Made by a program: the position numbers and the translations under genes
Notes under the pieces: model-generated
What the model saw: only the letters and a program-made list of their open reading frames with translations
Database searches by the model: none
Told to the model about the DNA's origin: nothing
From: Escherichia coli
GTDB lineage: Bacteria; Pseudomonadota; Gammaproteobacteria; Enterobacterales; Enterobacteriaceae
DNA length: 64,000 bases
Reading direction: 5' to 3' (one strand)
NCBI RefSeq assembly: GCF_022846255.1
Contig: NZ_AP025682.1
Shown here: positions 1,575 to 19,500 of the stretch, one piece after another
Position numbering within the stretch: the first letter of the stretch is position 1
Layout: every line of letters begins with the position of its first letter

Positions 1575-2467
1575 TGCTAAGCGAGGAAACGTCAGCCGTG
1601 CGCCCACCAAAACAAACGCGATTTAACGGTGCAAAACTGGTATGGATGCTGAAAGGCAGCCCGCTTACCGTGACCGGCGCAGTCATCATTGTATTAATGC
1701 TACTGATGATGATTTTTTCACCGTGGCTGGCGACGCATGATCCCAACGCCATTGATTTAACCGCCCGCCTTTTGCCGCCTTCTGCGGCGCACTGGTTTGG
1801 CACCGATGAAGTGGGACGCGATCTGTTTAGCCGCGTACTGGTCGGCAGTCAGCAATCAATTCTCGCCGGATTAGTGGTGGTCGCCATTGCAGGTATGATG
1901 GGGTCGCTACTCGGGTGTCTATCCGGTGTGCTTGGCGGACGCGCAGACGCGATTATCATGCGCATCATGGACATTATGCTGTCGATTCCTTCGCTGGTGC
2001 TGACAATGGCACTGGCAGCCGCTCTCGGGCCGAGTTTGTTTAACGCCATGCTGGCGATTGCTATTGTGCGAATTCCCTTTTATGTGCGCCTGGCGCGGGG
2101 GCAAACATTAGTTGTCCGCCAGTACACTTACGTTCAGGCGGCGAAAACCTTTGGTGCGTCGCGTTGGCATCTGATCAACTGGCATATTTTACGTAACTCC
2201 CTGCCGCCGCTGATTGTGCAGGCATCGCTGGATATCGGTAGCGCGATTTTAATGGCCGCCACGTTGGGATTTATTGGCCTTGGTGCTCAACAACCGAGTG
2301 CTGAATGGGGGGCGATGGTGGCGAATGGTCGCAACTATGTGCTCGATCAATGGTGGTATTGCGCATTTCCGGGGGCAGCGATTTTGCTTACCGCCGTCGG
2401 GTTTAATCTCTTTGGCGATGGTATTCGCGATCTGCTTGACCCGAAAGCAGGAGGAAAGCAGTCATGA
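1571..2467 (+). CDS. ddpC: D,D-dipeptide ABC transporter permease
   Basis: 298-aa membrane ORF overlapping ddpB stop by 4 nt; DppC-like. Confidence 0.9.
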   Translation: MMLSEETSAVRPPKQTRFNGAKLVWMLKGSPLTVTGAVIIVLMLLMMIFSPWLATHDPNAIDLTARLLPPSAAHWFGTDEVGRDLFSRVLVGSQQSILAGLVVVAIAGMMGSLLGCLSGVLGGRADAIIMRIMDIMLSIPSLVLTMALAAALGPSLFNAMLAIAIVRIPFYVRLARGQTLVVRQYTYVQAAKTFGASRWHLINWHILRNSLPPLIVQASLDIGSAILMAATLGFIGLGAQQPSAEWGAMVANGRNYVLDQWWYCAFPGAAILLTAVGFNLFGDGIRDLLDPKAGGKQS

Positions 2468-3450
2468 CCCAACCCGTTCTGGACATTCAACAGCTGCATT
2501 TGAGTTTCCCCGGTTTTAACGGCGACGTTCACGCGCTCAACAATGTGTCATTGAAAATCAACCGCGGTGAAATTGTCGGTCTGGTGGGAGAATCCGGCTC
2601 GGGTAAATCAGTCACTGCAATGTTGATTATGCGTCTGTTACCGACGGGCAGTTATTGCGTACATCGGGGGCAGATTTCACTGCTGGGAGAAGATGCTCTT
2701 AACGCTCGGGAAAAGCAGCTTCGTCAGTGGCGCGGCGCACGAGTGGCGATGATCTTTCAGGAACCGATGACCGCCCTTAATCCGACACGTCGAATAGGTC
2801 TTCAGATGATGGACGTGATCCGCCATCATCAACCAATAAGTCGTCGGGAAGCCAGAGCTAAAGCGATTGCCCTGCTGGAAGAGATGCAAATCCCGGATGC
2901 CGTGGAAGTTATGTCGCGCTATCCGTTTGAGCTTTCAGGTGGTATGCGCCAGCGGGTAATGATTGCGCTGGCATTCTCCTGCGAGCCGCAATTGATTATT
3001 GCCGACGAACCGACTACGGCGCTGGACGTCACGGTACAGTTGCAGGTACTGCGTCTGCTTAAACATAAAGCCCGCGCCAGTGGAACTGCGGTACTGTTCA
3101 TCAGCCATGATATGGCCGTGGTGTCGCAACTGTGCGATAGCGTTTACGTGATGTATGCCGGAAGCGTGATTGAAAGCGGCGTGACGGCAGACGTTATCCA
3201 TCATCCCCGGCATCCGTATACCATTGGTTTGCTGCAATGCGCACCGGAACATGGAATACCGCGCCAGCCATTACTCGCTATTCCGGGGACGGTACCAAAC
3301 CTCACCCATTTGCCTGACGGCTGCGCTTTTCGCGATCGTTGCTATGCGGCAGGTGCACAGTGTGAAAACGTCCCGGTGCTAACAGCGTATGGTGACAACA
3401 ACCACCGCTGCGCCTGTTGGTATCCGCAGCAGGAGGTCATTAGTGTCTGA
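2464..3450 (+). CDS. ddpD: D,D-dipeptide ABC transporter ATP-binding protein
   Basis: 328 aa with Walker A GESGSGKS and ABC signature LSGGMRQR; 4-nt overlap with ddpC. Confidence 0.9.
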   Translation: MTQPVLDIQQLHLSFPGFNGDVHALNNVSLKINRGEIVGLVGESGSGKSVTAMLIMRLLPTGSYCVHRGQISLLGEDALNAREKQLRQWRGARVAMIFQEPMTALNPTRRIGLQMMDVIRHHQPISRREARAKAIALLEEMQIPDAVEVMSRYPFELSGGMRQRVMIALAFSCEPQLIIADEPTTALDVTVQLQVLRLLKHKARASGTAVLFISHDMAVVSQLCDSVYVMYAGSVIESGVTADVIHHPRHPYTIGLLQCAPEHGIPRQPLLAIPGTVPNLTHLPDGCAFRDRCYAAGAQCENVPVLTAYGDNNHRCACWYPQQEVISV

Positions 3451-4369
3451 TACATTATTAACGTTACGCGACGTCCATATCAATTTCCCTGCCCGAAAAA
3501 ACTGGCTTGGTAAAACTACGGAACATGTTCATGCCATCAATGGTATTGATTTACAGATCCGTCGTGGTGAAACCTTAGGGATCGTCGGTGAGTCAGGCTG
3601 CGGCAAAAGCACCCTCGCACAGCTTTTAATGGGTATGCTGCAACCGAGCCACGGGCAGTACATCCGTTCAGGATCACAACGCATTATGCAGATGGTGTTT
3701 CAGGACCCGCTCTCTTCGCTTAATCCGCGCTTACCGGTGTGGCGCATCATCACGGAACCGCTCTGGATTGCTAAGCGTAGTAGTGAACAACAGCGGCGAG
3801 CGTTGGCAGAGGAGCTGGCTGTGCAGGTGGGTATTCGTCCGGAGTATCTCGACCGCTTGCCTCATGCGTTTTCCGGCGGGCAGCGGCAACGTATCGCCAT
3901 TGCCAGAGCACTCTCTTCGCAGCCTGACGTGATTGTGCTTGATGAACCAACCTCGGCGCTGGATATCTCCGTGCAGGCGCAGATCCTCAATTTACTGGTA
4001 ACGCTACAGGAAAATCGCGAGCTGACTTATGTGCTGATTTCACACAATGTCTCCGTGATACGTCATATGAGCGATCGGGTGGCGGTGATGTATCTCGGAC
4101 AGATTGTGGAACTAGGAGACGCGCAACAGGTGCTGACAGCTCCGGCACATCCATACACCCGATTATTGCTGGATTCCCTCCCCGCCATTGATAAACCGCT
4201 GGAGGAAGAATGGGCATTACGTAAAACGGATCTGCCGGGAAACCGCACGTTTCCGCAAGGCTGTTTTTTCTACGAACGTTGCCCTCTGGCAACCCACGGA
4301 TGTGAAGTCCGACAATCATTAGCAATAAGGGAGGACGGACGTGAGCTCCGGTGCTGGCGGGCGCTGTAG
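3443..4369 (+). CDS. ddpF: D,D-dipeptide ABC transporter ATP-binding protein
   Basis: ORF track extends to 3389, but the conserved protein begins VSDTLLTLRD at a GTG preceded by aggagg and overlapping the ddpD stop; Walker A GESGCGKS and signature FSGGQRQR. Confidence 0.85.
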   Translation: MSDTLLTLRDVHINFPARKNWLGKTTEHVHAINGIDLQIRRGETLGIVGESGCGKSTLAQLLMGMLQPSHGQYIRSGSQRIMQMVFQDPLSSLNPRLPVWRIITEPLWIAKRSSEQQRRALAEELAVQVGIRPEYLDRLPHAFSGGQRQRIAIARALSSQPDVIVLDEPTSALDISVQAQILNLLVTLQENRELTYVLISHNVSVIRHMSDRVAVMYLGQIVELGDAQQVLTAPAHPYTRLLLDSLPAIDKPLEEEWALRKTDLPGNRTFPQGCFFYERCPLATHGCEVRQSLAIREDGRELRCWRAL

Positions 4370-4424
4370 AGATGCTAACAACGCATCAGGCATTCACGCG
4401 CCTGACGCGTCATCCGGCAATGCT

Positions 4425-4856
4425 TTACGATTTCAACTGGTAATCCAGCGTAATTTCCGCTTTCAGTACCTGAGAGACCGGGCATCCTGCTTTTGCTTTC
4501 TGGATAATGCCGTCAAAAGTAGAGGCATCAATACCCGGCACCGCAACTTCGCTCTTCAGTGCGATTTTAGTAATCGCAAAACCGGCATCCACTTTATCCA
4601 GCGAGACATCGGCGGTGGTATCAATCGATGTTGGCGTGAATCCCGCTTCCCCCAGCATTAATGAAAGCGCCATTGAGAAACATGCGGCATGCGCTGCGCC
4701 AATCAGTTCTTCAGGGTTGGTTCCTTTTTCGCCTTCAAAACGCGTGTTAAATCCATACGGCTGTTGGTTCAGCACGCCGCTCTCAGTAGATACTGTTCCC
4801 TTCCCGCGTTTGATATCGCCTTCCCAGTGTGCCTGACCTTTCTTATGGATTGTCAT
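4425..4856 (-). CDS. osmC: osmotically inducible peroxiredoxin OsmC
   Basis: 143-aa ORF matching remembered OsmC sequence (MTIHKKGQAHWEGD...). Confidence 0.95.
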   Translation of the reverse strand: MTIHKKGQAHWEGDIKRGKGTVSTESGVLNQQPYGFNTRFEGEKGTNPEELIGAAHAACFSMALSLMLGEAGFTPTSIDTTADVSLDKVDAGFAITKIALKSEVAVPGIDASTFDGIIQKAKAGCPVSQVLKAEITLDYQLKS

Positions 4857-5200
4857 TGTTGCTCTCCTGTGGGCTTAAAAAGGAAATTATAGACTACGTG
4901 AGAAACAGCACGAGGATAAGCAGGATAATCCGAATAAAATCCGGCGAAAATATAATTCCTGCACTTAAATTAAATTTCCACAATAGATAACCGGAAATAT
5001 ATAACTCAAGAGATATTGCATCAATATCAATCAACTCATCACAATAATAATACCTATCAATATCATGGAGTTAAAATATAAAAATCATCAACCAGGACTA
5101 ATCTTAACAACGAAGCGGCAAATATTTGCCATGCTGAATGTGCTTTATAAATCTGCGATCCGTAGCAGACACCATAAATACACAGACACGGAGAATCACT

Positions 5201-5416
5201 ATGTTTACTTATTATCAGGCAGAAAATTCAACAGCAGAACCCGCTCTGGTTAATGCCATTGAGCAAGGCCTTCGGGCAGAGCACGGTGTTGTCACTGAAG
5301 ATGACATTCTCATGGAGCTGACCAAATGGGTGGAAGCATCTGATAACGACATCCTCAGTGATATCTACCAGCAAACGATCAATTATGTGGTCAGTGGTCA
5401 GCACCCTACGCTTTAA
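5201..5416 (+). CDS. bdm: biofilm-dependent modulation protein
   Basis: 71-aa product MFTYYQAENSTAEP... starting at an internal ATG of the 92-aa track ORF. Confidence 0.85.
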   Translation: MFTYYQAENSTAEPALVNAIEQGLRAEHGVVTEDDILMELTKWVEASDNDILSDIYQQTINYVVSGQHPTL

Positions 5417-5517
5417 GGTGCTATGCTTGATCGGCAACCTAATTTAGGGGTTTAGCACGTGTTTCTTCGCTACGGCGATGTTGTCCTTAAAACTAGCAAC
5501 AGGATTGAGGAGTTAAA

Positions 5518-5655
5518 ATGAAATCGAACCGTCAGGCACGTCATATTCTTGGACTGGACCATAAAATTTCTAACCAGCGCAAAATAGTTACCGAAGGTGA
5601 CAAATCCAGCGTGGTAAATAATCCCACCGGCAGAAAACGCCCCGCTGAAAAGTAA
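5518..5655 (+). CDS. sra: stationary-phase-induced ribosome-associated protein (45 aa)
   Basis: Hand-translated small [48 protein letters not shown], below the 60-aa track cutoff; RBS ggag upstream; terminator hairpin downstream. Confidence 0.85.
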
Positions 5656-5685
5656 TTCATAACCATCAGTCCTCAATGACGATTA

Positions 5686-5720
5686 AACACCATTGCCTGC
5701 GCAATGGTGTTTTTGTTTTT
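5686..5720 (+). terminator. Rho-independent terminator after sra
   Basis: Inverted repeat aacaccattgc / gcaatggtgtt followed by a T-run. Confidence 0.6.
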
Positions 5721-5811
5721 ATCTGCTTTATACTTGGTACTTGACGCCCTGGCGGTAATGCAAAGACGATAAAAGCCCCCAGGGATGGATATTCAAAAAA
5801 GAGTGAGTGAC

Positions 5812-7509
5812 ATGGAACCAAAAACAAAAAAACAGCGTTCGCTTTATATCCCTTACGCTGGCCCTGTATTGCTGGAATTTCCGTTGTTGAATAAAGGCAG
5901 CGCCTTCAGCATGGAAGAACGCCGTAACTTCAACCTGCTGGGGTTACTGCCGGAAGTGGTCGAAACCATCGAAGAACAAGCGGAACGAGCATGGATCCAG
6001 TATCAGGGATTCAAAACCGAAATCGACAAACACATCTACCTGCGTAACATCCAGGACACTAACGAAACCCTCTTCTACCGTCTGGTAAACAATCATCTTG
6101 ATGAGATGATGCCAGTCATTTACACCCCAACCGTCGGCGCAGCCTGTGAGCGTTTTTCTGAGATCTACCGCCGTTCACGCGGTGTGTTTATCTCTTACCA
6201 GAACCGCCACAATATGGACGATATTCTGCAAAACGTACCAAACCATAATATCAAAGTGATTGTGGTGACTGACGGCGAACGTATTCTGGGGCTTGGTGAC
6301 CAGGGCATCGGCGGGATGGGCATTCCGATCGGTAAACTGTCGCTCTATACCGCCTGTGGCGGCATCAGTCCGGCCTATACCCTTCCGGTGGTGCTGGATG
6401 TCGGCACCAACAACCAACAGCTGCTTAACGATCCGCTGTATATGGGCTGGCGTAATCCGCGTATCACTGACGACGAATACTATGAATTCGTTGATGAATT
6501 TATCCAGGCTGTGAAACAACGCTGGCCGGACGTACTGTTGCAGTTTGAAGACTTCGCACAAAAAAATGCGATGCCGTTACTTAACCGCTATCGCAATGAA
6601 ATTTGTTCTTTTAACGATGACATTCAGGGCACCGCGGCGGTAACAGTCGGCACACTGATCGCAGCCAGCCGCGCGGCAGGCGGTCAGTTAAGCGAGAAAA
6701 AAATCGTCTTCCTTGGCGCAGGTTCAGCGGGATGCGGCATTGCCGAAATGATCATCGCCCAGACCCAGCGCGAAGGATTAAGCGAGGAAGCGGCGCGGCA
6801 GAAAGTCTTTATGGTCGATCGCTTTGGCCTGCTGACCGACAAGATGCCGAACCTGCTGCCTTTCCAGACCAAACTGGTGCAGAAGCGCGAAAACCTCATC
6901 GACTGGGATACCGACAGCGATGTGCTGTCACTGCTGGATGTGGTGCGCAATGTAAAACCAGATATTCTGATTGGCGTCTCAGGACAGACCGGACTGTTTA
7001 CGGAAGAGATCATCCGTGAGATGCATAAACACTGTCCGCGTCCGATCGTGATGCCGCTGTCTAACCCGACGTCACGCGTGGAAGCCACACCGCAGGACAT
7101 TATCGCCTGGACCGAAGGTAACGCGCTGGTCGCCACTGGCAGTCCATTTAATCCAGTGGTATGGAAAGATAAAATCTACCCTATCGCCCAGTGTAATAAC
7201 GCCTTTATTTTCCCGGGCATCGGGCTGGGTGTTATTGCTTCCGGCGCGTCACGTATCACCGATGAAATGCTGATGTCGGCAAGTGAAACGCTTGCTCAGT
7301 ATTCGCCGCTGGTCCTGAACGGCGAAGGTCTGGTACTGCCGGAACTGAAAGATATTCAGAAAGTATCCCGCGCAATTGCGTTTGCGGTTGGCAAAATGGC
7401 GCAGCAGCAAGGCGTGGCGGTGAAAACCTCCGCCGAAGCTCTGCAACAGGCCATTGATGATAATTTCTGGCAAGCCGAATACCGCGACTACCGCCGTACC
7501 TCCATCTAA
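5812..7509 (+). CDS. maeA: NAD-dependent malic enzyme
   Basis: 565-aa product beginning [23 protein letters not shown]; the track ORF start at 5785 is an upstream extension. Confidence 0.95.
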
Positions 7510-8653: not shown

Positions 8654-8798
8654 GAGGTCTTTGCTGCGACTGCCATGTTCGGGTCGCAGCATCGCACACT
8701 CTCCAACATGAAATGGCTAAATGGATTATTGTTGCGTAGGAAGGAACAATAATGATAGTGTTCCTGGTGAAGGAACGCTACTGAGAGTAAAGACACTG

Positions 8799-9083
8799 AT
8801 GAAAATGGCCAATCCTCCCCGCCCGGGAGACATTATTCAGGAATCACTGGACGAACTTAATGTCAGCCTGCGCGAGTTTGCCAGAGCAATGGAAATTGCT
8901 CCCTCAACGGCAAGCCGATTGCTGACCGGAAAAGCAGCTTTGACGCCAGAAATGGCAATTAAACTTTCCGTGGTGATCGGCAGTTCGCCGCAAATGTGGC
9001 TGAATCTGCAAAACGCCTGGAGCCTGGCAGAGGCTGAAAAAACGGTGGATGTGTCGCGACTGCGCCGTCTGGTTACGCAATAA
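8799..9083 (+). CDS. yddM: HTH (XRE-type) antitoxin-like DNA-binding protein, HigA-like
   Basis: About 94-aa product [45 protein letters not shown]... with a helix-turn-helix; exact start uncertain (track ORF begins at 8721). Confidence 0.8.
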
Positions 9084-9084
9084 A

Positions 9085-9112
9085 AAAATGGCGCTTCTTA
9101 AAGCGCCATTTT
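9085..9112. terminator. bidirectional Rho-independent terminator between convergent yddM and fdnI
   Basis: 12-bp perfect inverted repeat aaaatggcgctt / aagcgccatttt flanked by an A-run and a T-run. Confidence 0.6.
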
Positions 9113-9133
9113 CAGCTTAAAGTTCAAAAGAGA

Positions 9134-9787
9134 TTATATCCCTTCTTCACTCTCTTTTTTCGCTTCTGCCTTCTCGATTTCACGATACCAGCGCGGATGG
9201 TGTTTCTTCGCCCAGCGACGGCTCACCTTCCCTTCGATCATCCCTTTAATCGATCCTTTCACCCAGAATGCCATATACATATGGATCAGGATGGCGTGGA
9301 TCAGGATGATACCCGCAGCCGCGTGAATCAGCAGGCTATAACGGACAACCTGTATCGGGAAGTACTGCGCAAAGTACGGACGCCAGATAATCACCCCGGT
9401 CACCAGCAGCACGAAAATCATGCTCATGATCGACCAGAACATCATCTTTTGCCCGGCGTTGTACTTACCGACATCCGCCACTTTATGCTCATTGCCTTTC
9501 AATACTTCGACAATGTTCAACAGCCACGGAATATCTTTCTTATCCGGGATGTTGTGATGCACAAAACGCACAAACATAAACATCAGTGCGACGAAAATCG
9601 CAATGCCGAAGAACGGGTGCAAAATGCGTCCCATCTGCGGCGTACCGAAGGTTTGCGTCAGCCATTGCAGCGTCGGGAAGAAGAACGAAATCCCGGACAG
9701 CGCCACCAGGAAGAAGCAAATCACCACGGTCCAGTGACAGGCGCGATCAATAAACTTGGTGCGCACAATCATTTTCGACTTACTCAT
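9134..9787 (-). CDS. fdnI: formate dehydrogenase-N cytochrome b556 (gamma) subunit
   Basis: 217-aa membrane protein beginning [19 protein letters not shown]; 8-nt overlap with fdnH. Confidence 0.95.
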
Positions 9788-10664
9788 GATGCTCCTCCTC
9801 GTCATCGTCCACTTCCTTATTCGGGCCAATACCGATGTAGTGGAAAATCAACCCGGCAAAAGTGGCGATAAAGCCAGCCGCTGCCAGCGGTTTCAACGCG
9901 CCTTTCCACAAGTTCACCGATGTGTCGATCTTCGGATCTTTCGGCAGACCGTGATACAGCTCCGGCTGATCGGCGTGATGCAACACGTACATGACGTGCG
10001 TACCACCGACCCCTTCCGGGTTGTAGACGCCAGCATGTTCGTAACCACGCGCTTTCAGTTTCGCCACGCGCTGTTCCGCCAGCTCCATCATCTCCTTCTT
10101 GGTGCCGAAGTGGATAGCCCCGGTCGGACAGGTTTTCACACAAGCCGGTTCCTGGCCGACGCTGACGCGATCGACGCAGAGCGTGCATTTATATACCCGG
10201 TTATCCTCTTTGTTGAGGCGCGGAATATTAAACGGACACCCGGCAATGCAGTAACCACAGCCGATGCAGTTTTCCGACTGGAAATCGACAATCCCGTTAG
10301 CGTACTGAATGATTGCACCAGCAGACGGGCACGCCTTCAGGCAGCCCGGATCTTCACAGTGCATACAGCCGTCTTTACGGATCAGCCACTCCAGCTTGCC
10401 GTTCTGTTCGGTTTCGCTAAAGCGCATCACCGTCCAGGACTTGGCGCTCAGATCGGCGGGGTTATCGTAAACCCCGACGCAGTGCCCCACTTCATCACGG
10501 ATGTCGTTCCACTCCGAACACGCCACCTGACAGGCTTTACAGCCGATACAGGTGGAAACGTCGATAAGTTTTGCGACTTCTGCTTTGTAATCACGCACCT
10601 GAGAAGGCGGCGTGATGGAGTTAGTTGCGGACCTTTTGATAATGTCCTGCGTTTCCATAGCCAT
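9780..10664 (-). CDS. fdnH: formate dehydrogenase-N iron-sulfur (beta) subunit
   Basis: 294 aa with multiple CxxCxxCxxxC ferredoxin motifs and a C-terminal TM helix. Confidence 0.95.
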
Positions 10665-10676
10665 CTGTTCGCCCCC

Positions 10677-13600
10677 TTACGCCTTCTCGATGTTGACTAA
10701 GAACGCTTTATATTCCGGCGTTTGCGAGTTTGCATCACCGACATTCGGCGTCAGAGTGTTAGCGATATAACCTTTACGCGCGACACCCTCAAAGCCCCAG
10801 TGGATCGGAATACCCACCGTTTCAACCTGCTGACCGTTTACATTCAGCGGTTTCAGACGGCGCGTTACCACCGCCACCGCGCGGATAAAGCCACGCTTGC
10901 TTGAGACAGTGACACGATCGCCATTATTAATGCCTTTCGCCGCCGCCAGCGTTTCGCTGATTTCCACAAACTGTTCCGGCTGAGCAATTGCGTTGAGCAA
11001 CGCGTGCTTGGTCCAGGTGTGGAAGTGCTCGGTCAGACGATAGGTCGTACCCACATACGGGAACTGCTCTTTTTTACCCATCCGCAGCGCGTCTTGTTCA
11101 TACAGACGAACGACCGGGTTAGACACCACGTTCGGATGCAGCGGGTTAGTGCCCAGCGGCGTTTCAATCGGCTCGTAGTGTTCCGGGAACGGACCTTCCG
11201 CCATTTTGTTGATGGCAAACAGGCGTCCCATCCCTTCCGGCTGCATGATAAACGGTCCGGTTGGTGTACCTGGCGCGGCATTGCCGAAGTCCGGAATATC
11301 GTTACCCGTCCACTTGCTGCCGTTCCACTGAATCAGCATCCGTTTCGGATCCCACGGTTTACCGTTGATATCCGCCGAAGCACGGTTGTAGAGTACGCGA
11401 CGGTTGAGCGGCCACGCCCAGGCCCATCCCAGCGTATTCCCCAGACCAGATGGGTCAGAGTTATCGCGGTTAGCCATCTGGTTGCCCTGCTCTGTCCAGC
11501 TACCGGTGTAGATCCAGCAAGACGATGCGGTTGTACCGTCATCACGCAGATGCGCAAAGCTACTCAGCAACTGACCTTTCTTCGCAATCAGCACGCCATT
11601 GGCATCATAGAGATCTTCCAGCGCGTAGCCGTTGTTCTCTTTCGCTACTTCGTCAGATTGCGGTTCGTGCGGCTGCTTGTAGTTCCAGCTCATCTTCATC
11701 AGCGGTTCTACGCCTTTACCACCCTCGGCCTGGTACAGCTCGCGCAGATGATGGTAGATACCCGCCAGAATTTCGCCGTCGTTACGTGCTTCGCCCGGCG
11801 CGTCCTGACCTTTCCAGTGCCACTGCAACCAGCGACCGGAGTTAGCGATAGAACCATCTTCTTCAGCAAAGCAGGTCGAAGGCAGACGGAATACTTCAGT
11901 CTGAATAGATGCCGGATCGACATCGTTCGACTCGCCGTGGTTCTGCCAGAAGGTAGAGGTTTCAGTCACCAGCGGATCGATAACCACCATGTACTTCAGT
12001 TTGCTCAGGCAGCTCACCACTTTGTTTTTGTCCGGGAAGGACGCAACCGGGTTAAAGCCCTGGCAGAAATAACCGGTGACTTTGCCTTCGTCCATCATGT
12101 TGAAATACTTGATGACGTCGTAGGTCTGGTCCCACTTCGGCAGCCAGTCGTAGCCCCAGTTGTTCTCTTTCTGCGCGGCATCGCCGTAGAAAGATTTCAT
12201 CAGGCTAACGAAAAACTTCGGATAGTTGCTCCAGTAGTTCACCTGATCAGCCAGCGTCGCTTTCGGCGTGTTCGCTTCCAGATACGACTGCAAATCAACC
12301 TGTTTTTCTGACGGCAGCGTCAGATAACCTGGCAGGCTGGTAGAGAGCAGGCCTAAGTCAGTCAGGCCCTGAATGTTGGAGTGACCACGCAATGCGTTCA
12401 CGCCGCCACCGGCCATACCCATGTTACCGAGCAGCAACTGGATCATCGCCATCGTACGGATGTTCTGCGCACCCACGGTGTGCTGCGTCCAGCCCAGCGC
12501 GTACAGGAAGGTGGTTGTGCGATCCGGTGCGCTGGTGGAGGCCAGCACTTCACACACTTTCAGGAAGTCGGCTTTTGGCGTACCGCAAATGTTTTCTACT
12601 ACGTCCGGCGTGTAGCGGGAAACGTGCGCTTTCAGCAGATTCCATACACAGCGCGGATGAGTCAGCGTGTCATCGCGTTTCGCATAGCCGTTTTCATCGA
12701 ACTGATAGTTCCAGGACGACTTATCGTATTGACGTTTTTCAGCGTCGTAGCCGCTGAACAGACCGTCTTCGAAAGCAAAATCATCACGCACCAGCAGGCT
12801 GGCGTTGGTGTAATGCTTAACGTATTCGGCGTTGATTTTGTTGTTTTCGATCAGGTAGCGCAAAACGCCAGACAGGAACGTAATGTCCGTACCGGAACGA
12901 ATAGGTGCGTAAATATCCGCCACAGAAGCGGTACGCGTAAAACGGGGATCGACAACGATCAAGGTTGCATCGTTGTTGTTTTTCGCTTCCATCGCCCAGC
13001 GGAAACCGACGGGATGCGCTTCAGCAGCGTTACCGCCCATCACCATTACGACGTTAGCGTTTTTGATATCCACCCAGTGGTTGGTCATCGCACCGCGACC
13101 AAATGTTGGAGCAAGACTTGCTACCGTTGGTCCGTGTCAGACGCGCGCCTGGTTGTCTACCGCCAGCATCCCGAGGGAGCGGGCAAATTTTTGAGTCAGC
13201 ATCCCGGTTTCGTTGCTGGCACCGGAAGCACACAGCATACCGGTAGAAAGCCAACGGTTTACCGTTACGCCCTGCTCGTTCTTTTCAATAAAGTTAGCGT
13301 CACGGTCGGCTTTCATCAGCTTCGCAATACGGGAGAATGCTTCTTCCCAGCTAATGCGCTGCCATTTGTCAGAACCTGGCGCACGATATTCCGGGTAGCG
13401 CAGACGGTTTTCGCTGTTGACGTAATCCAGCAAACCGGCCCCTTTCGGGCACAGCGCACCACGGCTTACCGGATGATCCGGGTCACCTTCAATGTGATAA
13501 ATCGCTTCTCTGGCGTTTTTCGCGCCATCACCCAGGCTATACATCAATAGCCCGCAACCTACGGAACAGTATGTGCAGGTGTTACGGATCTCTTTCGCGC

Positions 13601-13724
13601 GTAATAATTTGTAGTTTCGCGCCTGAGCCAGTGCTTGCTTCGGGGCAAAGCCCAATGCTGCTACTGTTGTTCCCGCCATACCGCCCGCGCAGATTTTAAA
13701 AAATTGTCTGCGACTGACGTCCAT
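10677..13724 (-). CDS. fdnG: formate dehydrogenase-N catalytic (alpha) subunit, selenocysteine-containing
   Basis: Two track ORFs (13137..13724 and 10677..13088) are in the same frame, separated only by a TGA at 13137..13139; N-terminus MDVSRRQFFKICAGG is a twin-arginine signal; total 1016 codons. Confidence 0.95.
13089..13136 (-). other. region expected to carry the SECIS stem-loop directing Sec insertion at the fdnG UGA
   Basis: Immediately 3' of the in-frame UGA on the mRNA; inferred from bacterial selenoprotein biology, structure not folded here. Confidence 0.5.
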
Positions 13725-13843
13725 TGCTTTCCTCTTTTTTCAGGGGTATTACTGCGCGAGGAAACTAACAGTAAAATTCTGAATCTTTTTGCGCGAAATC
13801 AAAAAGAACACGTGTTTGCCACAAAATAATCCTCCTGCGCAAA

Positions 13844-13857
13844 TTGACCTACCTCAA
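13844..13857 (-). promoter_or_regulatory. candidate FNR site in the fdnG-yddG divergent intergenic region
   Basis: TTGAC-N4-CTCAA resembles the TTGAT-N4-ATCAA consensus, about 120 bp upstream of the fdnG start; fdnG is known to be FNR-activated. Confidence 0.35.
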
Positions 13858-13956
13858 TAGCGGTAGAAAAACGCACCACTGCCTGACAGGCCAGTTAAAA
13901 AAAATGCTATAAAATTCAGCTTAATTTTTAACGGCAAGAGAGACAAAACAGCGAGC

Positions 13957-14838
13957 ATGACACGACAAAAAGCAACGCTCATAGGGCTAATAGCGATCGT
14001 CCTGTGGAGCACGATGGTAGGATTGATTCGCGGTGTCAGTGAGGGACTCGGCCCGGTCGGCGGCGCAGCTGCTATCTATTCATTAAGCGGGCTGCTGTTA
14101 ATCTTCACGGTTGGATTTCCGCGTATTCGGCAGATCCCGAAAGGCTATTTACTCGCCGGGAGTCTGTTATTCGTCAGCTATGAAATCTGTCTGGCGCTTT
14201 CCTTAGGGTATGCGGCGACCCGTCATCAGGCGATTGAAGTGGGGATGGTGAACTATCTGTGGCCCAGCCTGACAATTCTCTTTGCCATTCTGTTTAATGG
14301 TCAGAAAACCAACTGGCTGATTGTACCAGGATTATTATTAGCCCTGGTCGGCGTCTGCTGGGTGTTAGGCGGTGACAATGGGTTACATTATGATCAAATT
14401 ATTAATAATATCACCACCAGCCCATTGAGTTATTTCCTGGCGTTCATTGGGGCGTTTATCTGGGCAGCCTACTGCACAGTAACGAATAAATACGCACGCG
14501 GATTTAACGGAATTACCGTTTTTGTCCTGCTAACGGGAGCAAGTCTGTGGGTTTACTATTTTCTTACGCCACAACCAGAAATGGTATTTAGCACGCCCGT
14601 CATGATTAAACTCATCTCTGCGGCATTTACCTTAGGATTTGCTTATGCTGCATGGAATGTCGGTATATTACATGGCAACGTCACCATAATGGCGGTAGGT
14701 TCGTATTTTACGCCCGTCCTTTCCTCAGCGCTTGCAGCCGTGCTGCTCAGCGCCCCGCTGTCGTTCTCGTTCTGGCAAGGCGCGCTAATGGTCTGCGGCG
14801 GTTCCCTGCTCTGCTGGCTGGCGACACGTCGTGGCTAA
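13957..14838 (+). CDS. yddG: aromatic amino acid exporter (DMT family)
   Basis: 293-aa polytopic membrane protein matching remembered YddG. Confidence 0.9.
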   Translation: MTRQKATLIGLIAIVLWSTMVGLIRGVSEGLGPVGGAAAIYSLSGLLLIFTVGFPRIRQIPKGYLLAGSLLFVSYEICLALSLGYAATRHQAIEVGMVNYLWPSLTILFAILFNGQKTNWLIVPGLLLALVGVCWVLGGDNGLHYDQIINNITTSPLSYFLAFIGAFIWAAYCTVTNKYARGFNGITVFVLLTGASLWVYYFLTPQPEMVFSTPVMIKLISAAFTLGFAYAAWNVGILHGNVTIMAVGSYFTPVLSSALAAVLLSAPLSFSFWQGALMVCGGSLLCWLATRRG

Positions 14839-15110
14839 AATAATTGTCGGGTCTACGGCCCGGCAGTTAATCAGATAAATTCTGACAATATTAAAAAATA
14901 AATTTCAAATACCAGAAAGTCATTTTAGTTACATTTAGTAACACATATCTGTCTGTTTATTCCACATTCTGCCCCCGCAGTTACGCTTTCTTATCTATTC
15001 TTCTAATCAGCACTTCACCTGATTCATCCTTAATTCTAATAACTGGCTATTGCGCCTTACCTCCTGTTTTGTCTTTTTTTCATTACCAATGTGTGCATGT
15101 GAGGAACAAT

Positions 15111-16499
15111 ATGGCACTGCAAAATGAGAAAAATAGTCGTTATCTTTTACGCGACTGGAAACCAGAAAATCCGGCCTTCTGGGAAAATAAAGGAAAGCAT
15201 ATTGCACGAAGAAACCTCTGGATATCAGTCAGTTGCCTACTTCTTGCCTTCTGTGTCTGGATGCTATTTAGCGCAGTTACTGTTAATCTCAATAAAATCG
15301 GTTTTAATTTCACTACCGATCAACTCTTTTTATTAACCGCATTACCCTCCGTTTCTGGCGCATTATTGCGTGTCCCCTACTCCTTTATGGTGCCTATATT
15401 CGGTGGACGCCGATGGACGGTTTTTAGTACTGCAATCCTGATTATTCCTTGCGTCTGGCTCGGAATTGCCGTGCAAAATCCGAATACCCCTTTTGGGATA
15501 TTTATCGTTATCGCTTTGCTATGCGGTTTTGCAGGTGCGAACTTTGCTTCGAGCATGGGCAATATCAGTTTCTTCTTTCCAAAAGCCAAACAAGGGAGCG
15601 CTCTTGGGATTAATGGCGGATTAGGAAACTTAGGTGTAAGTGTGATGCAGCTGGTTGCACCGCTGGTCATTTTTGTCCCCGTATTTGCCTTTCTCGGCGT
15701 CAATGGCGTACCGCAGGCCGACGGTTCGGTGATGTCGCTGGCGAATGCCGCATGGATTTGGGTGCCATTACTGGCGATTGCCACGATCGCCGCCTGGTCA
15801 GGGATGAATGATATCGCCAGTTCACGCGCCTCAATTGCCGACCAGCTCCCTGTCTTGCAACGCCTGCATCTCTGGCTGCTGAGCCTGCTTTATCTTGCCA
15901 CCTTCGGTTCGTTTATCGGTTTTTCTGCGGGTTTTGCCATGCTGGCAAAAACCCAGTTCCCGGATGTGAATATTCTGCGCCTGGCGTTCTTTGGCCCATT
16001 TATCGGTGCCATCGCGCGATCGGTTGGTGGTGCTATTTCCGATAAATTCGGCGGCGTGCGGGTGACGTTGATCAACTTCATTTTTATGGCGATTTTCAGC
16101 GCCCTGCTGTTCCTTACCTTACCGGGCACAGGCTCCGGTAATTTCATCGCATTTTACGCCGTATTTATGGGGCTGTTTCTGACCGCGGGTCTGGGAAGTG
16201 GTTCTACTTTCCAGATGATCGCCGTCATCTTTCGCCAGATAACAATTTATCGGGTGAAGATGAAAGGCGGTAGTGATGAGCAAGCTCAAAGAGAAGCCGT
16301 CACCGAAACGGCAGCCGCTCTGGGCTTTATCTCAGCCATTGGCGCAGTGGGCGGCTTTTTTATTCCGCAGGCGTTTGGCATGTCGCTCAATATGACCGGC
16401 TCTCCGGTGGGCGCGATGAAAGTGTTTTTAATCTTCTACATCGTTTGTGTGCTACTGACCTGGCTGGTTTATGGTCGGCGGAAGTTCAGCCAAAAATAA
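15111..16499 (+). CDS. narU: nitrate/nitrite transporter (MFS)
   Basis: 462-aa product beginning MALQNEKNSRYLLRDWKPENPAFWENKGK; NarK-like. Confidence 0.95.
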   Translation: MALQNEKNSRYLLRDWKPENPAFWENKGKHIARRNLWISVSCLLLAFCVWMLFSAVTVNLNKIGFNFTTDQLFLLTALPSVSGALLRVPYSFMVPIFGGRRWTVFSTAILIIPCVWLGIAVQNPNTPFGIFIVIALLCGFAGANFASSMGNISFFFPKAKQGSALGINGGLGNLGVSVMQLVAPLVIFVPVFAFLGVNGVPQADGSVMSLANAAWIWVPLLAIATIAAWSGMNDIASSRASIADQLPVLQRLHLWLLSLLYLATFGSFIGFSAGFAMLAKTQFPDVNILRLAFFGPFIGAIARSVGGAISDKFGGVRVTLINFIFMAIFSALLFLTLPGTGSGNFIAFYAVFMGLFLTAGLGSGSTFQMIAVIFRQITIYRVKMKGGSDEQAQREAVTETAAALGFISAIGAVGGFFIPQAFGMSLNMTGSPVGAMKVFLIFYIVCVLLTWLVYGRRKFSQK

Positions 16500-16507
16500 G
16501 AGATCGA

Positions 16508-16530
16508 TGCCTGACACGTCTTATCAGGCT
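16508..16530. repeat. REP-like palindromic element in the narU-narZ spacer
   Basis: gcctgacacgtcttatcaggc resembles the REP unit seen at 24228. Confidence 0.3.
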
Positions 16531-16593
16531 ACAACCGTGTCTCATCCGACAAGGCATCAGATCCCAATTCATTCCTGGAGCAGGAGTTATGTC

Positions 16594-19500
16594 ATGAGTA
16601 AACTTTTGGATCGCTTTCGCTACTTCAAACAAAAGGGCGAAACCTTTGCCGATGGTCACGGACAGGTGATGCATAGCAACCGCGACTGGGAGGACAGCTA
16701 TCGCCAGCGTTGGCAGTTCGACAAAATCGTGCGTTCCACCCACGGTGTTAACTGTACAGGCTCCTGCAGCTGGAAAATCTACGTTAAAAATGGTCTGGTG
16801 ACCTGGGAAATCCAACAGACCGACTACCCGCGCACTCGCCCTGACCTGCCAAATCATGAACCTCGCGGCTGCCCGCGTGGCGCAAGTTACTCCTGGTATC
16901 TCTACAGCGCTAACCGCCTGAAATACCCGCTCATTCGTAAACGACTGATTGAACTGTGGCGCGAAGCCCTCAAACAACACAGCGATCCGGTACTGGCGTG
17001 GGCATCGATTATGAACGATCCGCAAAAGAGCCTGAGCTACAAACAAGTGCGTGGACGCGGTGGCTTTATCCGCTCCAACTGGCAGGAGCTAAATCAGCTG
17101 ATTGCCGCCGCTAACGTCTGGACCATCAAAACTTACGGCCCGGATCGCGTTGCCGGTTTCTCGCCGATTCCGGCGATGTCGATGGTTTCTTACGCCGCCG
17201 GAACACGCTATCTGTCGTTGTTAGGTGGCACCTGTTTAAGCTTCTACGACTGGTATTGCGACCTGCCGCCCGCCTCGCCGATGACCTGGGGCGAGCAAAC
17301 CGACGTACCGGAATCTGCCGACTGGTATAACTCCAGTTACATCATCGCCTGGGGGTCTAACGTACCGCAGACACGTACGCCGGACGCCCATTTCTTTACC
17401 GAAGTACGCTACAAAGGCACTAAAACCATCGCCATTACCCCTGACTACTCTGAAGTGGCCAAATTGTGCGACCAGTGGCTGGCACCGAAACAAGGCACTG
17501 ATAGTGCCCTGGCAATGGCAATGGGCCATGTCATTTTAAAAGAGTTTCATCTCGATAATCCCAGCGATTATTTTATCAACTACTGCCGCCGCTACAGCGA
17601 CATGCCGATGCTGGTAATGCTGGAACCTCGCGACGACGGCAGCTACGTTCCCGGGCGCATGGTCCGCGCATCTGACCTGGTGGATGGACTGGGCGAAAGC
17701 AATAATCCGCAGTGGAAAACCGTGGCAGTTAATACCGCAGGTGAATTGGTAGTGCCGAACGGTTCGATTGGTTTTCGCTGGGGAGAAAAAGGCAAATGGA
17801 ACCTGGAATCCATTGCCGCCGGTACGGAAACCGAATTGTCGTTAACCCTGCTCGGTCAACATGACGCCGTTGCAGGCGTGGCCTTCCCCTACTTTGGCGG
17901 CATTGAAAATCCACATTTTCGCAGCGTAAAACACAATCCTGTCCTGGTGCGCCAATTGCCCGTTAAAAACCTGACATTAGCCGATGGTAGCACCTGTCCG
18001 GTGGTCAGCGTTTATGATTTGGTACTGGCGAATTACGGCCTCGATCGCGGGCTGGAAGATGAAAACAGCGCGAAAGATTACGCTGAAATCAAACCTTATA
18101 CCCCTGCCTGGGGCGAGCAAATTACCGGCGTTCCGCGCCAGTATATTGAAACCATCGCCCGTGAATTTGCCGATACCGCCCATAAAACGCATGGGCGCTC
18201 GATGATTATTCTCGGCGCAGGTGTTAACCACTGGTATCACATGGACATGAACTACCGCGGGATGATCAATATGCTGATCTTCTGCGGTTGTGTCGGGCAA
18301 AGCGGTGGCGGCTGGGCACACTATGTCGGTCAGGAAAAACTGCGCCCGCAAACCGGCTGGCTGCCTCTGGCCTTTGCGCTCGACTGGAACCGACCACCGC
18401 GCCAGATGAACAGCACCTCGTTTTTCTACAATCACTCCAGCCAGTGGCGCTATGAAAAAGTCACCGCGCAGGAATTGCTCTCACCGCTCGCCGATGCCAG
18501 TAAATACAGCGGTCACCTGATTGATTTCAACGTTCGCGCCGAACGTATGGGCTGGCTACCTTCTGCGCCGCAGCTGGGGCGTAACCCGCTCTCCCTGAAA
18601 GCCGAAGCCGACAAGGCCGGATTGTCACCCGCCGAATTTACCGTCCAGGCACTGAAGTCAGGCGAATTACGCATGGCCTGCGAACAGCCGGACAACGGCA
18701 GCAACCATCCGCGTAACCTGTTTGTCTGGCGTTCAAACCTGCTTGGCTCTTCCGGCAAGGGCCACGAGTATATGCAGAAGTATCTGCTGGGTACGAAAAG
18801 TGGCATTCAGGGGGAAGAACTTGGACCGACGGAGGGAATCCAACCAGAAGAAGTCGAGTGGCAAACTGCGGCGATTGAAGGCAAGCTCGACCTGCTGGTG
18901 ACGCTCGACTTCCGCATGTCCAGTACCTGCCTGTTCTCCGATATCGTTCTGCCCACCGCCACCTGGTACGAAAAAGACGATATGAATACCTCGGATATGC
19001 ATCCATTTATTCATCCGCTTTCTGCGGCGGTCGATCCGGCGTGGGAATCACGCAGCGACTGGGAAATCTACAAAGGTATCGCTAAAGCCTTTTCGCAAGT
19101 GTGCATAGGGCATCTCGGCAAAGAAACCGACGTGGTATTACAACCACTGCTGCATGACTCCCCGGCAGAGCTTTCACAGCCGTGTGAAGTGCTCGACTGG
19201 CGCAAAGGTGAATGCGATCTGATTCCAGGCAAAACCGCGCCGAATATTGTGGCGGTGGAGCGCGACTACCCTGCTACCTATGAACGCTTTACCTCACTCG
19301 GGCCATTGATGGACAAACTTGGCAACGGCGGTAAAGGGATTTCGTGGAATACCCAGGATGAAATTGATTTCCTCGGTAAACTCAATTACACCAAGCGTGA
19401 TGGCCCGGCAAAGGGGCGTCCGCTGATTGACACCGCCATTGACGCATCAGAAGTGATTCTGGCACTGGCACCGGAAACCAACGGCCATGTTGCAGTCAAA

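Follow-up and report, generated by a model that had tools for sequence, protein, structure and literature searches.

The 272 bp between yddG and narU in the window (the whole 64-kb stretch of Escherichia coli DNA that was analysed) represent the empty allele at a chromosomal site that occurs in three states in E. coli. The first state, which includes O-island 62 of O157:H7, is a 4.1-kb low-G+C segment that carries an OmpD-type porin, fragments of leucine-rich repeat (LRR) genes and espR1, a gene for an LRR type III effector. The second, the K-12 form yddL-yddK-yddJ, is the first state less two internal pieces, each deleted at a short overlap of sequence. In the third, the form found in the window, the flanking points are the same with nothing between them, and this form appears typical of the B2 lineage. 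The compact form was probably produced by a single deletion in an ancestor of the B2 lineage, and probably does not represent a site that was never filled. We infer both the direction of this event (loss) and its mechanism.

The yddG stop codon (TAA) lies at 14836-14838 and the narU ATG at 15111-15113, leaving a spacer at 14839-15110. yddG (13957-14838, plus strand) was taken from the ORF list and NCBIfam as an intact gene for an aromatic amino acid exporter of 293 aa. Its product scored 472 bits against NF008676 (cut-off 194) and was 99% identical to K-12 YddG in amino acids. narU (15111-16499, plus strand) is likewise intact and encodes a nitrate/nitrite transporter of 462 aa, which scored 1021 bits against NCBIfam NF011608 (cut-off 836) and was 99.6% identical in amino acids to NarU of K-12 and 100% identical to that of ST648. 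Its ribosome-binding site, GAGGA, is at 15101-15105. Both gene identities matched the RefSeq annotation of near-identical genomes, and the two genes stand in the same orientation at the empty site.

The spacer itself contained no small ORFs other than spurious ones, which are 20-66 aa long and overlap the start of narU. A search of positions 13500-15600 against Rfam (E <= 1) returned only a chance miR-129 match outside the spacer, and no known RNA within it. No tblastn match to the porin, LRR170 or EspR1 was found in the window. On the far side of yddG, fdnG (10677-13724, minus strand) was split by an in-frame stop into ORFs of 195 and 803 aa. We interpret this stop as the UGA codon for selenocysteine that is expected in formate dehydrogenase-N, and not as the sign of a pseudogene.

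A sequence-only reading of this DNA had noted a gap of about 270 bp and had placed yddL, yddK and yddJ at the same position in MG1655. Both points were borne out by the comparison with MG1655 (NC_000913, 1536000-1550000), in which the narU-yddG spacer is 2,227 bp long and holds yddJ (a pseudogene), yddK and yddL. MG1655 does not have an equally short spacer, and the indel is real; as the comparison is one of structure, chance plays no part in it. BLAST of the window against MG1655 gave two collinear blocks, 13001-14922 and 14925-17000. The K-12 insert between them is 1,956 bp long with a G+C content of 33.7%, and includes all of yddL, yddK and yddJ.

The junction (the empty site) is therefore placed at 14923-14924 by these two blocks. 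K-12 has its 1,956 bp here, O157:H7 strain 4276 has 4,143 bp at the same two breakpoints, and the isolate '648' (ST648) has a segment of similar size. The alignments with K-12 and O157 both put the breakpoints at 14922/14925, and the one with ST648 differed from this by no more than 7 bp. The 84-bp yddG-proximal part of the spacer (14839-14922, plus strand) is common to the segment-bearing K-12, O157 and ST648, and was 90% identical to O157 over 89 bp. It gave no alignment with the corresponding spacers of two cryptic-clade Escherichia (L006 and L007), Citrobacter or Salmonella, and is therefore uninformative.

The distribution of the alleles was surveyed in 5,426 complete E. coli genomes. With a 122-bp probe centred on the junction, the exact compact junction was found in 1,118 of them (~21%) at 98.4-99.2% identity; with a 1.4-kb probe, yddG and narU were contiguous in 1,134. 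Segment DNA of any extent was present in 4,282 genomes (~79%). It was full length (at least 80% of the 4,143 bp) in 1,009, and the rest were mostly of the K-12 type of ~1.96 kb. In the segment-bearing genomes that were sampled, the break fell mostly at positions 60/63 of the probe, corresponding to 14922/14925 of the window, and in a few it was up to ~10 bp off.

Among the genomes with the compact allele are O25b:H4-ST131, ATCC 25922 and DSM 30083 (= ATCC 11775). From the strain names and general knowledge, we take ST131, ATCC 25922 and ATCC 11775 to belong to phylogroup B2 and ST648 to phylogroup F. With phylogroup labels assigned from strain names in this way, the compact form would be typical of the B2 lineage. 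The indel had been described as strain-specific, which was not supported: it is a lineage-wide allele, carried by about 21% of complete E. coli genomes.

These counts also bear on whether the compact junction might be a recent deletion private to the strain, or a collapse in the assembly. Nothing beyond the comparison with K-12 alone speaks for either, and the presence of the same junction in 1,118 complete genomes, ST131, ATCC 25922 and DSM 30083 among them, leaves such an explanation practically without probability. Because so many complete genomes carry it, the junction is no assembly artefact. For annotation, the 272-bp spacer of the strain is complete, with nothing absent through error. 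The compact junction is an ordinary presence/absence polymorphism at the level of lineages, in a locus that is already documented. Among the few genomes with contiguous yddG and narU that did not have the exact junction was E. coli NH-21 (L088, 2298-3082), of K-12-like background, in which an IS1 lies between the two genes and only ~34 porin codons are left; this was an independent event.

The content of the occupied site was examined in O157:H7 and ST648, where the segment is intact. It comprises a porin gene (366 aa; annotated as 'OmpC'), fragments of LRR genes, and espR1, whose annotation reads 'T3SS effector leucine-rich repeat protein'. K-12, on the other hand, has a decayed remnant. Its sequence equals the O157 segment minus 4316-5851 (1,536 bp) and 6178-6818 (641 bp), in the coordinates of the O157:H7 4276 locus (L003). 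The alignment blocks adjoining these two internal deletions overlap by 9 and 12 bp.

By coordinates, yddL (9739-10029 of the K-12 locus, L001) corresponds to the first ~92 codons of the porin, yddK (8759-9715 of the same locus) to a chimera in which an LRR fragment is joined to the central part of espR1, and yddJ to the tail of espR1. yddL would then be the 5' end of the porin gene left by the 1,536-bp deletion, and yddK a chimeric ORF created by the 641-bp deletion between two LRR genes. On this evidence yddL, yddK and yddJ of K-12 are gene wreckage, and not genes that the strain studied here 'lacks'. The G+C content of the segment was 36% overall, 44% in the porin gene and 32-33% in the LRR genes. 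This difference suggested that the porin is old, and that the LRR genes joined it later by acquisition.

The locus has been described by Okeke et al. (2011, Gut Pathog 3:4; PMC3079680), who located O-island 62 (z2239-z2242 of EDL933) between yddG and narU, related yddL and yddJ to z2239 and z2242, and regarded the segment as horizontally acquired. The site and the flanking genes are the same here, and the window represents the allele without the whole variable segment. In that study O157, EAEC 042 and K-12 were compared and the island was treated as a marker of certain lineages; a fully empty junction and its frequency are not described there. The K-12 state was proposed to come from an insertion of yddK, whereas our alignment indicated two internal deletions. 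Added by the present analysis are the breakpoints, the allele frequencies, the K-12 remnant as the product of two deletions, a connection with the ompD-smvAR locus found in other enterobacteria, a reasoned polarity (loss) and the extent of the conserved narU control region.

The older history of the site was followed in species-representative genomes, which were scanned with YddG and then searched by tblastn. The gene directly 3' of yddG encodes a porin in Citrobacter, Enterobacter, Lelliottia and Salmonella arizonae/diarizonae. In the first two of these genera smvA, smvR, narU and narZ come next, in this order; the SmvA family match scored 877 bits (cut-off 701) and the TetR regulator 327 bits (cut-off 144). 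The E. coli porin was 72-75% identical to most of the yddG-adjacent porins, versus 59-62% to OmpC, OmpF, PhoE and OmpN of E. coli. It clustered with the yddG-adjacent porins, on a long branch, and the DNA upstream of it aligned with that upstream of those porins (E = 3e-10 to 1e-4). The yddG-adjacent porins of Enterobacter wuhouensis (L043) and E. vonholyi (L049) clustered instead with OmpC, outside the OmpD-type group, suggesting that the gene at this slot was replaced.

The yddG-ompD-smvA neighbourhood has been studied in Salmonella (Santiviago et al. 2002, Mol Microbiol 46:687, as cited in PMC6362122), and E. coli has been reported to be without smvAR (PMC6362122). The flanks of the yddG-ompD-smvA-smvR locus of Salmonella, Citrobacter and Enterobacter are the same as those found here (fdnG, yddG and narU-narZ), and the porin of segment-bearing E. 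coli groups with the yddG-adjacent porins of that locus. Compared with it, the window is without porin, smvA and smvR, that is, everything from yddG to the narU control region, whereas other E. coli retain the porin and have LRR genes in place of smvAR. The porin end of the segment would be a vertical leftover of an ancestral enterobacterial order of fdnG (leftward), yddG (rightward), an ompD-type porin gene (rightward), smvA (leftward), smvR (rightward) and narU (rightward), and the LRR genes of E. coli would occupy the place of smvA-smvR.

The compact form most probably goes back to one illegitimate deletion in the B2 ancestor, which would have begun 84 bp after yddG and ended where the conserved narU control region starts. 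The porin genes of O157 and ST648 were 97.8% identical (a difference of 2.2%), and the flanking genes yddG, narU, fdnG and narZ differed by 1.8-2.8%. Since the divergence of the porin matches that of the core flanks, the segment appears to be old in E. coli.

The DNA around the junction was compared further with the segment-bearing ST648. From 14700 to ~17900, the window was 98-99.8% identical to ST648, versus 94.7-97.9% to K-12 and O157. In the 186 bp to the right of the junction, the window sides with ST648, and not with K-12 and O157, at eight variable sites, and one site is unique to the window; in narU, 14 sites group the window with ST648 and five are unique to the window. The variable sites on the yddG side were equivocal (five and six, respectively). 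As the haplotype shared with ST648 reaches to within ~36 bp of the boundary, the segment could have been imported into an empty site only by a crossover very close to its edge.

Such an import is what the opposite polarity would demand. If the compact junction were the ancestral state of E. coli or of Escherichia, the 4.1-kb segment would have entered the non-B2 ancestor by homologous recombination from a lineage that retained ompD. We consider this unlikely. The low G+C content of the segment (36%, with 32-33% in the LRR genes) and its description as horizontally acquired (PMC3079680) are in its favour. Against it, the porin gene stands in the place that it has in the ancestral gene order and is preceded by homologous DNA, it has diverged between groups E and F as much as the core flanks have, and the segment-bearing ST648 has the haplotype of the window almost up to the boundary.

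Other support for an ancestral empty site came from related genomes. The two cryptic Escherichia, L006 and L007 (~91-92.5% nucleotide identity), which represent divergent species, also have compact yddG-narU junctions. However, the left part of these junctions is unrelated to the 84 bp of the window, and L006 retains ~19 bp more of the ancestral smvR-narU spacer than the window does. Because both the left sequence and the right end differ from those of the window, the short spacers of L006 and L007 are separate deletions. In L006 (E. coli E69), the fdnG part (1-2100) was 96-99% identical to E. coli, and yddG and beyond (2100-3240) 84-90%. This drop may reflect either a strong conservation of fdnG or a recombination boundary.

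The closest outgroup, Escherichia sp. MOD1-EC7003, is without narU and gives no information on the polarity. In its locus (L004, 10877-20876) yddG is followed directly by nhoA-, ansP-, yncE- and yncD-like ORFs; narU was not found downstream of yddG, and the narUZYWV block appears to be missing. The YddG scan of species-representative genomes returned no locus from E. albertii or E. fergusonii. As the nearest outgroups gave no usable locus, the polarity rests on the deeper synteny and on the sharing of haplotypes.

Neighbour-joining trees of the flanks gave conflicting positions for the window, which was an outlier in part of narZ. That the window branches first in the narZ tree would also fit an ancestral empty site, but sliding-window identities traced the signal to a separate divergent tract at ~17900-19500. 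In this tract (peak 18300-19100), the window was 91-93% identical to K-12, O157 and ST648, which were 97.5-98.8% identical to each other, and the flanks of the tract were 97-99% identical. The window is here as divergent as a different Escherichia species (L006), and the tract looks like a recombinant import into narZ in the lineage of the window. The outlier signal thus comes from a mosaic tract apart from the junction, and loss of the segment is the reading that we retain.

The 186 bp between the junction and narU (14925-15110, plus strand) form a conserved block. Its identity was 93.5% to O157, 79-82% to cryptic Escherichia and 60-69% to the smvR-narU spacers of Citrobacter and Enterobacter, with which it is homologous over most of their length. 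Within this block, 4 bp from the junction, is a palindromic element, TTACAnTTnGTAACA (TTACATTTAGTAACA; 14929-14943), that is invariant in Escherichia, Citrobacter, Enterobacter and Kluyvera. TTACAnTTnGTAACA occurs nowhere else in the 64-kb window, where 0.03 matches would be expected by chance. No mention of TTACAnTTnGTAACA was found in a search of the literature, and to our knowledge the TTACATTTAGTAACA palindrome matches no consensus for FNR, NarL, CRP, ArcA, NsrR, Fur or TyrR. Conceivably, TTACAnTTnGTAACA serves as the operator of a narU regulator.

A second block invariant across the genera, CTTTnTTATCTATTCTT (14987-15002, plus strand), was identified from the alignment columns. The TCTATTCTT inside it is a candidate sigma-S-like -10 element, by comparison with the consensus KCTAYRCTT. 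Downstream of it is a candidate sigma-70 promoter (15014-15040, plus strand), composed of TTCACC (15014-15019) and TCTAAT (15035-15040). An RpoD 'constitutive' promoter, TTCACC-16-TCTAAT, has been assigned to the K-12 narU-yddJ spacer by genomic SELEX (Shimada et al. 2014; PMC3946193); the spacing between the hexamers counted in the window was 15, versus 16 in that study. A scan for promoter and terminator consensus sequences gave one promoter-like site on the minus strand, no more than was obtained with shuffled sequences.

The 186-bp block is common to all alleles and holds the RpoD SELEX hexamers. The core narU promoter would therefore lie in the conserved 186 bp and be unaltered by the junction. 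It had been proposed from the sequence that the junction defines the narU promoter region in this strain. This applies only to the DNA upstream of -186, which is changed; the core of 186 bp is the same region in every allele.

The occupied alleles were searched for signs of a mobile element. No tRNA genes were found by the tRNA search, no terminal direct or inverted repeats by the repeat search, and no integrase in the annotation. There was also no IS sequence in the 272 bp of the window, in contrast to NH-21 with the IS1 at its site. From these results the segment does not appear to be a mobile island, and mobile-element machinery was probably not involved in its removal.

Two features would fit a mobile segment whose precise excision left an attB-like site in the window. 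In the four aligned genomes, and in most of those sampled, the breakpoints agree to within a few bp, and the 15-bp palindrome lies 4 bp from the junction. Precise excision is nevertheless very improbable. There is no integrase, transposase, tRNA, terminal repeat or target-site duplication, and one gene of the segment is ancestral and in syntenic position. Genera in which smvR takes the place of the segment also conserve the palindrome, which for this reason belongs to the control of narU and not to an att site.

The junction sequences were read for a deletion scar, and only an imperfect TTA...CATTT similarity was seen between the start of the segment and the right flank, in A+T-rich DNA. The internal deletions of K-12 are located at overlaps of 9 and 12 bp, and we read the B2 event, too, as probably an illegitimate deletion at short homology. 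On its right side it ends 4 bp short of the conserved cis-element, which is consistent with selection against deletions that extend into the narU control region. Other small lineage-specific deletions in the E. coli core, of the illegitimate or microhomology-mediated class, are likewise free of mobile-element signatures, have at most a few bp of microhomology and are fixed in one phylogroup. Unlike that class in general, we infer the mechanism here, and the junction carries no unambiguous scar.

Upstream of the 186-bp block, the window has only the 84-bp tail of yddG, whereas K-12 has ~2 kb of segment remnant. A G+C-rich hairpin with a 12-bp stem and a 3-nt loop (14842-14868, plus strand) begins 3 nt after the yddG stop codon, and the RNA of 14830-14945 was predicted to fold with -31.5 kcal/mol (z = -6.3). 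The scan found no intrinsic terminator, and there is no U-tract after the hairpin; without this tract, it is not a canonical intrinsic terminator. The deletion would thus have replaced all the more distal upstream DNA with the 3' end of yddG and its hairpin, and left the 186-bp narU control region untouched.

One possible effect on narU concerns a ciprofloxacin-adaptive mutation in BW25113, T1538580C, with which narUZYWV transcripts were up to 10-fold higher (PMC11417348). This mutation (BW25113 position 1538580; position 2081 of our locus L089) maps 263 bp upstream of the narU ATG and 77 bp inside the K-12 remnant. From our reading of the sequence, it affects the basal pair of a hairpin with a 12-bp stem in the remnant. 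The window has no homologous position, and its own -263 falls in the yddG 3' hairpin.

It is conceivable, though doubtful, that loss of the segment in B2/ExPEC strains rewires the distal control of narUZYWV, the nitrate system of stationary phase. If it did, B2 strains could express NarU/NRZ differently, for example by read-through from yddG, and could be blind to the ciprofloxacin-adaptive route at -263. Because ~21% of E. coli genomes are without the -263 position, counts of variants in the narU 'regulatory region' of clinical isolates that are referenced to K-12 could be confounded by the presence or absence of the segment. More generally, variant calls 'upstream of narU' against the K-12 reference concern DNA that is missing from about one-fifth of E. 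coli genomes, major ExPEC lineages included. With the polarity and the order of events proposed here, the locus would be a tidy example of stepwise decay, from ompD-smvAR to a porin with LRR effector genes, then to a remnant, and finally to nothing.
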